IMG/VR virus record: IMGVR_UViG_2802429244_000018 | Coordinates: 1 to 46,327 of that record | Reading direction: 5' to 3' (one strand) | Source of the DNA: a virus | Taxonomy: Duplodnaviria > Heunggongvirae > Uroviricota > Caudoviricetes | DNA length: 46,327 bases | In this document: positions 36,001 to 39,000 of the stretch, piece by piece | Numbering within the stretch: position 1 is the stretch's first letter | Layout: every line of letters begins with the position of its first letter | Program-made: the position numbers

Positions 36001-39000
36001 GTTCTTCAGGAACCTGAGTACAGGTATTGATGGTTTTGTTAAAGCCGTTGGTGGCGCTGGAAACGCATTGGGCATTCTTGCTGCCATGGCTCTTCTTAGC
36101 GGCAAAGGGTTAGGAAGCAAGCTGGGATTAATCGGGGCTGTTGGTATTTTTGGGCAGATGGTACAAGACCAGTATAAAGATGTTCCTGATGAGATGCGGC
36201 CATTCGCATTTCAGCAGCATTGGCTGGAAAGGCTCATTGGGATGGATTATGACGATCCAAATAAAGAGATTCCTCCTAACAAAAATGGTGTCAACAGGCC
36301 TGACAGAAACAATAACCCATTAAATCTTAAAGCTACTGGAAACAGAAGAAGAGACAAGGACGGATTTGCTCAATACTTCGACCCAGAAGAGGGCTGGGAG
36401 GCCGCTAGGAATCAACTGACTCTATACTACAAAAGAGATAAGCTTGATACATTGCAAGGGATAATAAGCAAGTGGGCACCATCCTCAGAAAACAACACAA
36501 AGGCGTATATTGACCAGGTTTCTAAGTCTATGGGCGTTGGTGCCAATGATAAGCTAAACCTCTCAGATCCAGAGGTTATGGCAAAACTTAGCGCCTATAT
36601 GGCTAGGCATGAAGGTTATCCAGATTGGAAGCGGGGTCTTGATTATGGTAACCCAACGAAAAATAGCAATGCCGCGTACTACCAAACCCAGCAAAGATTG
36701 GCTAATGGATCTGCAAACCAATCCTATGCCCAGAGCGTTGTTAACAATTACAACAGCCAGCACATAGGAGAGGTAAAGGTAATTGCCAAAACGGATCAAT
36801 CCTCAAAACTAACCGAAGGATTTAAGGAGTTGAATCGCAGATCATCAGTAAATCAGGCATTTTCAAGTGCAGTGCCTTAGCAGATTTGCTATTGACTAAT
36901 TTCCCGCATGAATGCAATTGTTTTTGCCATTTTCTCAGAGTGATCAATTGTCTCAACGAGAAATTTTCGTGCGGGAGATTGCTCATTCTCGCCTCGGAAT
37001 GTGGCGTTAATGTTTTGCATTGCTGCATTTTTCCACATGCTTACTTCTTCTATGGATTGCGATAATGATGCTGAAGATGCAGCGTCAAAGCATATACCAT
37101 ACGATGAATCTCGTATATCTGACGGTGACTTGCCAATAGCACTAAGTTGATTTCCATACTTTTTTACCATGTCGTTAGCCATATCCTGACAAACTTCATC
37201 AATGCTTTTACCCATGCCTGCAACATAAGGAGAAGCATCTTTTATTAAAGACATCATTTTTTCCTTATCTTTGTCGGATGCAGCATAAGCTGCGAGTGAT
37301 AGAAGAACGGAAGAAAATATTGCTATTGTGAAAAATCTGGATTTCATTCTTTCCCCTTGTAAATTTTCCTATGTTTGTATCCGTTAACTTAAGCAAAAGC
37401 ACGCAACACTCAGTTTTACGCAGGATACCAGATGAAATGGTCTTCAAAACTGGATGTCTTCAGCATCATCGCCAAAAACATTTTTATATGCATCTTGCCT
37501 TAAGCTCCTGAGAGCTTGATACATTTGCGAATGAGAACTGATGCTATCTAGTAAGTAGAAAATTGCTTTGATTAGCTCATTCTCCCACCGCTCAAACTCT
37601 TCTTTGTTTGATGGCCTATTCCCGGAAAGGTTTGAGTAAATCTTCATAATCCTTGAGTTATCAACCTCCGCAGGCACCGGAGACTTCAAGGCATCATCAA
37701 TGATAAACACTAGCTCTGTATTCATTGATCTGCCGTTTTCCTTTGCTCTTAAGGCTATAGCATCCCGCATTCCTGCCGGAAGCCTGATATTGAACCTATC
37801 CATTTCATGACTAGGGAACTTGCTCATATGACCTCAACGTAAAGATGTTCGCTAAACAATAGCACCAACTTGACATCAAAATAAATGGTGTTAAATTGGT
37901 TCTAGAACCAAGTTGGTATCATTGTGGGGGGATTACTTATGAAAGATGTGCTTTATACAGGTCGTAAAAGTCAAAGTTTCCAGCTTCGTTTGCCAGCGCA
38001 AATGAAGGAGGAGATTAGACGTGTTGCTGAAATGGATGGAATTTCTATCAACTCTGCGATTGTGCAGCGACTGGCTAAAAGCCTGAGAGAGGAAAGAGCT
38101 AATGCCCAGTAAAAATAGTGAAGCCCGGCAGTGCGCAAACACAAACCGGGCCTCTATGTCAGTAACCGTATGCAAGGAAACTAACATGAATATTGTAGCA
38201 AAATCAGATTACAACTTCCACGGAGTTGAGTTGGTGCCCACCCGTGATATGCATGGTGTTTGGTTTACATCATCTAATATTGCATCTGCACTTAAATACG
38301 CAAATAGTCGTGCAGTAACAATGATTTATAACAAGTATAGCGACGAGTTTAGCGCCGGAATGACTCAGGTACTCGAAGTGAGTACCTCAGGAAATTATCG
38401 CAAAAAAGTGCGAGTTTTCTCACTACGCGGTGCCCACCTAATCGCGATGTTTGCTCGCACTCCGGTAGCCAAAGAGTTCCGCCGCTGGGTGCTGGATATT
38501 TTGGATCGGCAGGCAGAATGCTCACCGATTGCAAAACAGTTTACTGACGAAGAACTGGTTAATCTCTGCTACTTACAATTGTGGATGGAGAAGAGTCAAC
38601 AAATGTGCAAACACATCTACCCAGGAATGAAGCAAATTGGTTCTGAGCTTTCAGGAAGGATTTACGATATTGCATATGAGACTCGCTACATGTCAGAAGA
38701 AACCAAGAAATCACTTCTTCGTGAAATGAAGAATCTTGATACCAACAATTTTGTCGTAAAGAACGCTCAGCCAATGCTGGCAAAACTTCGCGGCGAGGAA
38801 TGGATTCATTGATTGGTGCGCCGGACGGCGCAAAAAGAAAACCGCCAGTGTGCTGCTGGCGGCCTATGTCACACCCTTACTACCACATAAGGAATGCCTA
38901 ATGACTTTTAAGAATGTAGCAAACATCGGATCCGTTGTCACGGATAAAACCATTGATAGCCAGTACCTGTTAGAGATGGTCAATCATGCTCGTAGACAGT

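Follow-up and report, generated by a model that had tools for sequence, protein, structure and literature searches.

A conserved slot for exported proteins at the 3′ end of the tape measure gene in an Escherichia coli prophage and its relatives

The 3′ end of the tape measure protein (TMP) gene in a set of enterobacterial prophages is a conserved and dispensable slot for exported proteins, a finding added by this analysis. The gene examined here fills this slot in IMG/VR virus record IMGVR_UViG_2802429244_000018, of which positions 1 to 46,327 were analyzed (46,327 nucleotides (nt); hereafter the window) and which is a complete temperate prophage of an E217-type myovirus from Escherichia coli. 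It is read from the minus strand at 36889-37347, from an ATG start to a stop codon at 36889-36891, and encodes a precursor of 152 amino acids (aa) that belongs to what we call family A. We propose, with a probability of roughly 0.4, that this protein is a periplasmic superinfection-exclusion or immunity factor that acts on the incoming TMP.

The slot after the TMP stop codon

The conserved partner of the family A gene is the TMP gene. The two genes are convergent in 20/20 loci from genomes, metagenomes and viral contigs, and at each of them the family A gene directly adjoins the stop codon of the TMP gene (gap, -3 to +9 nt). In the window the two stop codons are 8 nt apart, in agreement with the convergent arrangement described in a first-pass annotation of this sequence. 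The adjoining TMP is about 600 aa long and belongs to the same E217-type tail module in all 20 loci, whereas the region upstream of family A holds different Arc/Ant modules in some loci and unrelated DUF2513, P63C, HNH or Rha genes in others. In a Yersinia locus (L006) and a Cronobacter locus (L027) there is no upstream module, and the family A gene stands alone between the TMP and baseplate genes. The first-pass annotation had also placed the gene downstream of a Mnt-like repressor gene. This is correct for the window, in which the Mnt-like gene lies on the same strand 96 nt upstream; the link is nevertheless incidental, because the immI-type module to which such genes belong differs or is missing in relatives, as in L006 and L027, while adjacency to the TMP gene is invariant. 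Among the loci recovered, family A was never found outside this prophage tail module, elsewhere in a chromosome.

The slot was surveyed in 85 loci with an intact TMP gene, collected from the TMP alignment, by scoring any convergent gene within 150 nt of the TMP stop. It was filled in 49 loci and empty in 36, and in five of the empty ones the nearest convergent open reading frame (ORF) was the Mnt-like gene. The occupants form eight groups without detectable mutual similarity. The largest is the A superfamily (31 loci), made up of short A (20), A with a C-terminal extension (6) and other extension-containing forms (5); it is followed by B (146-152 aa, 8 loci), fam4 (117-133 aa, 4 loci), C (147-153 aa, 2 loci) and four groups of one locus each, namely D (135 aa), E (149 aa), fam8 (112 aa) and fam9 (197 aa). 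An N-terminal export signal was called in all eight of these non-Mnt families, seven times of the Sec or lipoprotein type and once as a membrane anchor, as compared to 26 of 733 (3.5%) other long ORFs in the same loci. These and all other signal-peptide calls were made with a heuristic for the n-, h- and c-regions. The fam8 protein (L076) has an internal N-terminal segment that resembles a transmembrane (TM) helix in place of a classic signal peptide. Family B combines a signal peptide with two invariant cysteines and a confident all-alpha model of five main helices (mean predicted local distance difference test score (pLDDT) 84), and a profile-profile comparison of families A and B aligns their signal peptides only. 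Family D, found in a Rouxiella prophage (L016, 7329-7736, minus strand), matches PF12869 (OB fold) and phrog_8545, which is labelled "superinfection exclusion Sie-like" (E=3.5e-16).

The content of the slot varies among close relatives. The TMP type of the window is present in 5 of 5426 complete E. coli genomes, one with the allele studied here and four with family B at that position, and about 15 further genomes carry a sister module whose TMP has an SLT (lytic transglycosylase) domain. In the one sister-module genome inspected (E. coli TW10590, L031) the ORF is missing from ribosome-binding site (RBS) to stop, and the block that normally precedes it is kept directly after the TMP stop (6816-6900). 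The family A gene of the window is also the local minimum of GC content, at 0.37-0.40 against 0.43-0.49 in the flanks, a modest difference. The gene thus shows two of the marks of a moron in the sense of Juhala and Hendrix, presence or absence among close relatives and a deviating base composition.

Two further observations concern the other occupants. In an unrelated myovirus of the XkdK type, Klebsiella phage ST405-OXA48phi1.2, a family D homolog (L029, 7190-7858, minus strand) that bears the annotation hydrogenase maturation factor lies antisense within the baseplate operon, and other homologs are found in Bordetella phages, in an accessory region downstream of the repressor gene. Long slot forms of 242-287 aa carry a C-terminal extension of about 110-130 aa on an A-like or another N-terminal domain, and all of them accompany TMPs of the SLT type (L019, 6776-7504; L021, 6837-7604; L062, L069, L077, L079 and L092). 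The extension also exists alone, without a signal peptide, in L018.

Slot content and the hydrolase domain of the TMP

The TMP gene of the window (35105-36880, plus strand) lies between the tube/chaperone and baseplate genes and encodes a lytic tail protein of 591 aa that matches phrog_873, phrog_2013 and phrog_2276 and has hydrophobic segments near residues 73-99 and 311-333. Residues ~395-520 (36287-36664, plus strand) were identified with phmmer as a peptidoglycan hydrolase domain of the Enc34-endolysin type (PHA02564), with matches to PDB 7q47 (E=2e-10 to 3e-11) and to 9vvp Gp29. The former is the endolysin of Hafnia phage Enc34, an enzyme experimentally active on peptidoglycan with catalytic residues Glu131, Trp79 and Tyr95 (PMC8943055). 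TMP residues W457, Y468 and E503 correspond to Enc34 Trp79, Tyr95 and Glu131, respectively, and 26-27 of the 27 Enc34-type TMPs retain them. The remaining 58 of the 85 TMPs have an SLT domain at the same place. Since TMPs that are nearly identical elsewhere, such as those of L006 and L007, differ in having an Enc34-type or an SLT domain, the muralytic domain is swapped as a cassette within the TMP gene.

The class of this domain and the occupant of the slot are associated. Next to the 27 Enc34-type TMPs the slot holds A in 18 loci and B in eight, is empty in one and never holds another family; next to the 58 SLT-type TMPs it holds A in two loci, B in none and other families in 21, and it is empty in 35. 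When the loci were dereplicated by the N-terminal lineage of the TMP (>=90% identity), the counts of A or B against other families were 11/0 for the Enc34 type and 2/16 for the SLT type (Fisher p=2e-6), and in four TMP lineages domain type and slot content switch together. The tie of families A and B to Enc34-type TMPs is therefore strong at the level of the class. The charges are complementary as well, with isoelectric points (pI) of 5.2 and 5.6 for mature A and B and of 9.1-9.5 for the TMP hydrolase domain.

A strict cognate-inhibitor model, in which A and the domain would co-vary on a fine scale, was considered and rejected. Such co-variation was not found, and the class-level association alone survives. 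For example, A is 71% identical between the window and L025, where the hydrolase domains are 93% identical, and 72% identical between the window and L003, where the domains are 45% identical.

Conservation, predicted export and predicted structure of the family A protein

The gene is a real one under constraint, from a small orphan family of Enterobacteriaceae and Yersinia. The minus-strand ORF and its good RBS are present exactly as first annotated, with a Shine-Dalgarno sequence, AAGGGG, at 37358-37353 and a spacing of 5 nt to the ATG. A search of 5.8 billion proteins returned 29 homologs of 44-99% identity, all unnamed, from six genera (represented by E. coli, Enterobacter, Citrobacter, Salmonella, Cronobacter and Yersinia), and only nine clusters, all of exported proteins of the same kind, emerged when a profile was run against 1.84 billion cluster representatives. 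In an alignment of 25 homologs every insertion or deletion is in frame and 31 positions are invariant, among them Cys53 and Cys86. The ratio of nonsynonymous to synonymous substitution rates (dN/dS) is 0.10-0.13 wherever dS is unsaturated, which indicates purifying selection. The N-terminus and length of the protein are identical in the window, in an E. coli twin locus (L001) and in four viral contigs. Comparison of the protein with Pfam, PHROG, NCBIfam and PADLOC gave zero matches, and tblastn against 50,697 phage records and against plasmid collections gave nothing.

The N-terminus of the protein is predicted to direct Sec export. Codons 1-22 (37282-37347, minus strand) encode a candidate signal peptide for signal peptidase I (SPase I), MKSRFFTIAIFSSVLLSLAAYA, with cleavage after AYA and ASDK as the first mature residues. 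It has two basic residues in the n-region, an uncharged hydrophobic core of 16 residues, within the 10-16 expected of an h-region, and the A-x-A motif at -3/-1; no lipobox was found in the N-terminus, and the first 50 residues are without Cys. The canonical signal peptide of the first-pass annotation is thus borne out by the heuristic. The property is shared by the family, since the first 22 residues vary in sequence among the 25 homologs while all retain Lys2, a hydrophobic core without charges and small residues at -3/-1. Residues 1-25 are the sole hydrophobic segment of the protein (KD19 scan). The mature part is hydrophilic, with a grand average of hydropathy (GRAVY) of -0.50, and acidic (pI 5.2), and no amphipathic membrane segment was detected in it.

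Some gene calls (P0003 and P0027) begin at Met31 or Met32 and give products of 121-122 aa. They are explained by an internal AAGGAA, which precedes Met31-Met32 by 6 nt (37245-37257, codons 27-32). We rejected this start for the main product, as the 30 codons upstream are open and signal-peptide-like in every homolog. A short cytoplasmic isoform from Met31/32 is possible.

Structure prediction, which had been suggested as a check on the first annotation, gave a confident AlphaFold2 (AF2) model (pLDDT 87, predicted template modeling score (pTM) 0.78). The model is all-alpha, with helices at residues 25-38, 49-69, 75-95, 99-116 and 125-151, and its residues 1-19 have a pLDDT below 50, as a disordered signal peptide would. 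Cys53 and Cys86 are placed on consecutive antiparallel helices at roughly matching heights, and a disulfide between them is plausible in this model. The model had no informative structural neighbor and did not match the known lysozyme-inhibitor folds, and neither homology nor fold connected the protein with any exclusion protein.

The upstream block and its expression signals

A block of sequence travels with the gene at 37348-37407 (minus strand), as seen in an alignment of nine loci. Besides the RBS it contains TACAAA at 37379-37374, GTTAAC at 37388-37383 and an invariant TTGC at 37396-37393, and in all nine loci the TTGC, a G, TAA and TA.AA are conserved. Seven of the nine have a -10 element, TAGAAT or TAAAAT, 23-26 nt 5′ of the ATG, with a weak -35 element at 17-nt spacing. 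A position weight matrix scan found GTGTT(T/A)-17-TAGAAT at a conserved position in relatives; in the window its candidates were all weak. About 70-90 nt 5′ of the family A ATG is the mosaic junction.

In most relatives the block is preceded by a GC-rich hairpin flanked by runs of A and T, similar to a bidirectional terminator, which is absent in the window and in L001; no hairpin or terminator was found between the Mnt-like gene and the family A gene of the window (37348-37443). The hairpin in the relatives plays the part of the mnt terminator of P22, which precedes the sieA promoter. Because the hairpin is missing and the -10 element reads TACAAA, expression of the gene in the window may depend on read-through from the Mnt-like gene.

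The hairpin has a second aspect. In L004, L006, L008 and L009 it lies at ~5935-5965, upstream of the family A gene, as AAAAAGCCCACC-n4-GTGGGCT followed by a T-rich run. Read along the strand of the late operon, it has the form of a canonical intrinsic terminator after the TMP gene. Antitermination is one possibility for how transcription of the baseplate genes passes it.

Comparison with known exclusion proteins

The closest positional parallel is sieA of phage P22. In P22 (NC_002371), gene 16 converges with sieA across a 22-nt gap; sieA has its own annotated promoter after the mnt terminator, and upstream of it on the same strand are orf59a and mnt, beyond which arc, ant and gene 9 run in the opposite direction. 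Thus, both sieA and the gene of the window are convergent with the last DNA-delivery gene (gene 16 or the TMP gene) at a gap of a few nucleotides, both are downstream of mnt on the mnt strand, and both are set within an immI region of mnt, arc and ant that splits the late operon. SieA resides in the inner membrane, with three TM helices and without a signal sequence, and blocks the conduit of the ejection proteins encoded just upstream (PMC10883804), whereas the family A protein has one cleavable-looking signal and a hydrophilic body. In addition, SieA comes from a podovirus and the family A gene from a myovirus, and the protein has no sequence similarity to any of the three SieA types.

In general design the protein resembles T4 Spackle (gp61.3), a cleaved, disulfide-containing, helical periplasmic protein that inhibits the gp5 tail lysozyme via a basic patch, is produced in the course of infection and restricts lysis from without (PMC7677548). 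Both proteins are small and have a periplasmic targeting signal, a compact helical bundle and one pair of cysteines, the signal and bundle being predicted in family A. Furthermore, Spackle binds a basic surface, and the family A protein is acidic and the neighboring TMP domain basic. In contrast, there is no sequence or detectable structural similarity to Spackle (PDB 6X6O), mature Spackle has 75 aa as compared to ~130 aa, and the enzyme concerned has a T4-lysozyme fold rather than being of the Enc34/PHA02564 type. Spackle is also encoded by an early gene of a virulent phage that does not adjoin gene 5.

Other exclusion proteins have the TMP or the tail as their target. T4 Imm binds gp29, the TMP of a contractile phage (preprint 10.64898/2026.03.06.709160), and HK97 gp15, a moron located beside the TMP gene within the tail operon, blocks entry depending on the tail region of the infecting phage (PMC3594210). 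Unlike the family A protein, which is predicted to be soluble and is an antisense-encoded member of an orphan family, these are small inner-membrane proteins, and gp15 belongs to the YebO family and is co-oriented with the tail genes. The Ltp lipoprotein family of the Streptococcus thermophilus phage TP-J34 has also been described (PMC3952083). Like the proposed role of the family A protein, that of Ltp is of a prophage-expressed, exported, helical exclusion protein; unlike it, Ltp is a lipoprotein with tandem helix-turn-helix-like repeat domains from the lysogeny module of a Gram-positive siphovirus, and the family A protein has no lipobox, no repeat and no homology to it. Bebeacua et al. reportedly identified the TMP of the incoming phage as the target of Ltp in 2013.

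Because tests of homology and architecture fail for each, the protein is outside the SieA, Spackle, Imm, gp15 and Ltp families. Positioned like SieA and similar to Spackle in general design, it is best filed as a new orphan in the known class of prophage accessory (moron) genes for envelope proteins.

Proposed function and alternative explanations

The first-pass annotation had suggested an exclusion or host-fitness factor, and this remains the most reasonable functional class. Within it, we infer both an exclusion phenotype and a molecular target. The family A protein would be Sec-exported and would reside in the periplasm as a soluble, all-alpha protein of ~130 residues after cleavage, encoded antisense in a short, dispensable cassette attached to the TMP 3′ end. 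Its most likely source in the lysogen would be a weak promoter of its own, read-through from the Mnt-like gene, or both, and from the periplasm it would exclude incoming phages of the same tail type. To do so it would bind the ejected TMP, most plausibly at its basic Enc34-type hydrolase domain, and the binding would stop the phage from penetrating the cell wall and delivering its DNA and guard against lysis from without. In a contractile phage the TMP takes the role of the P22 ejection proteins, and T4 Imm, HK97 gp15 and T4 Spackle are precedents for the TMP or the tail-borne lysozyme as a target. A stronger version, in which the slot is a dedicated, fast-turnover immunity slot of soluble periplasmic inhibitors matched to the TMP hydrolase class, is doubtful. 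Under that version A and B could neutralize the Enc34-type glycosidase domain and the other families the SLT domain, in a pairing of the effector-immunity style, and it would then be the first Spackle-like mechanism in temperate phages, carried out by a fold without a known relative.

Several points weigh against an exclusion factor directed at the TMP. The export on which it depends is predicted by a heuristic. In the window and in its twin L001 the family's -10 element has decayed to TACAAA, a canonical -35 element is present in no locus, and no terminator was found after the gene; the earlier description of the protein as lysogen-expressed is therefore weak for the window copy, and expression in the lysogen is something that we infer. 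The "Sie-like" label of phrog_8545, the match of family D, could be traced to no experiment in the literature. Pairwise identity within family A tracks that of the hydrolase domain (rho 0.34) no better than that of the tube protein (rho 0.46). L006 and L007 encode an identical A protein, yet the TMP of L007 is of the SLT type, and L075 likewise pairs an A-like protein with an SLT-type TMP. Finally, because the domain and the slot are only ~250-600 nt apart, their exchange as one block could suffice to explain the association without a functional link. The comparison of the window with L011 argues a little against transfer as a single block, as the two differ in the domain (72% identity) and in the slot (A versus B) while the C-terminal tail between them is 97% identical.

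The protein could instead be a lysogenic-conversion or host-fitness moron with no phage target that merely uses a convenient insertion site, acting for example in envelope stress or in protection from host lysozyme, colicins or type VI peptidoglycan effectors. The cassette is moron-like in being dispensable, low in GC and equipped with its own upstream block, its product is exported and acidic, it has neither a homology nor a fold link to exclusion proteins and shows no fine-scale co-variation with the TMP, and host-directed roles of morons are diverse (PMC3594210). We nevertheless regard this explanation as rather unlikely. A generic insertion site should also gather cytoplasmic cargo, as the adjoining variable region does with its DUF2513, P63C, HNH and Rha genes, whereas the slot holds exported families in 8/8 cases against a background of 3.5%; moreover, A and B go with a single TMP hydrolase class, family A is confined to this prophage tail module, and the known lysozyme-inhibitor folds are unmatched. 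Another role might lie in the lytic cycle or virion release, where the protein would restrain the muralytic TMP or shield sibling or late-infected cells from lysis from without. T4 Spackle sets a precedent for this (PMC7677548), and both the tight coupling to the TMP gene and hydrolase class and the weakness of a stand-alone promoter in the window would suit it. It is distinctly unlikely, however, for a gene that is antisense to the late operon with no room for a terminator, such that late transcription should collide with it, that is dispensable in many intact-looking relatives and that lies 15 kb from the lysis cassette.

It is quite improbable, too, that the N-terminal segment is an uncleaved signal anchor and the protein an inner-membrane-tethered channel blocker like P22 SieA, HK97 gp15 or T4 Imm. 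The characterized Gram-negative DNA-entry blockers are indeed inner-membrane proteins (PMC10883804, PMC3594210 and the T4 Imm preprint), and the fam8 protein of L076 has a TM-like N-terminal segment. Small residues at -3/-1 in 25/25 aligned homologs and an h-region of ~16 residues are, on the other hand, typical of cleaved SPase I signals, and the mature part is hydrophilic (GRAVY -0.50), with no amphipathic membrane segment detected. That the ORF is spurious or decaying and without function is scarcely credible. The degraded -10 element in the window and L001 and the rarity of the allele, found in 1/5426 complete E. coli genomes, would fit decay; a dN/dS of ~0.1, solely in-frame indels, 31 invariant residues that include both cysteines, a confident AF2 model and the same N-terminus and length in the window, L001 and four viral contigs do not. 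Apart from these explanations, the protein was considered as a lysis gene product and rejected, since the endolysin and Rz genes are located elsewhere, 15 kb away.

If the protein is an exclusion factor directed at the TMP, it represents an uncharacterized periplasmic anti-phage family with an unmatched fold, and at least seven further unrelated exported families share its address. New DNA-entry blockers of enterobacterial prophages could then be sought by a simple rule of position, on the opposite strand directly after the TMP stop. As a tractable pair for study, the TMP hydrolase domain and the exported protein beside it could reveal how temperate phages of the contractile kind get through the cell wall and by what means lysogens stop them, which bears on host range in phage therapy. 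Should the proposal fail, the gene would count as an ordinary lysogenic-conversion moron.

Layout of the prophage and the immI-type module

The window begins with the integrase gene (1-1074, minus strand) and continues with genes for a CI-type repressor (11021-11734, minus strand), a primase/helicase (13470-15350), the endolysin (21154-21651), the Rz spanin (21636-22085), the large terminase (23766-25292), the tail sheath (32550-34040), baseplate J (42927-44156) and the tail fibre (44808-45920).

The immI-type module is a variable neighbor of the family A gene and lies outside the conserved unit, being replaced or missing in relatives. In the window it comprises the Mnt-like gene, which encodes an Arc/Mnt-like ribbon-helix-helix repressor of 127 aa (37444-37827, minus strand; Pfam Arc, E=1e-16; phrog_3178, E=1e-59), and, on the plus strand, an Arc-like gene (37924-38112), an Ant antirepressor with Bro-N and P22AR_C domains (38102-38812) and a second antirepressor (38850-39629). 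The divergent mnt/arc region holds a Pant-like sigma-70 promoter, TTGACA-16-TAAATT (37870-37897, plus strand), in the layout of the annotated P22 Pant/Pmnt. Such a P22-type module stands between the TMP and baseplate genes both in the window (37444-39629) and in the nearest cultured phage, Edwardsiella phage GF-2 (L024, 6115-8023), and it is swapped, truncated or missing among close relatives. In GF-2, gp20 lies downstream of the Mnt-like gene and was considered as a slot protein; it was rejected, as it lacks a signal peptide.

The mnt-arc-ant segment at 37409-38200 of the window is 98% identical to positions 6001-6792 of a P22-like, podovirus-type prophage of E. coli E7476 (L002). Therefore, immI modules move between podovirus-type and myovirus-type prophages. 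At the position equivalent to sieA, the E7476 prophage encodes a hypothetical protein of 122 aa and a YobH-family protein.

Between the tube and TMP genes of the window (34486-35108) are two ORFs of 135 and 72 aa that overlap by 4 nt. Tail assembly chaperones are usually encoded in this interval as a pair, in many cases linked through a programmed frameshift.

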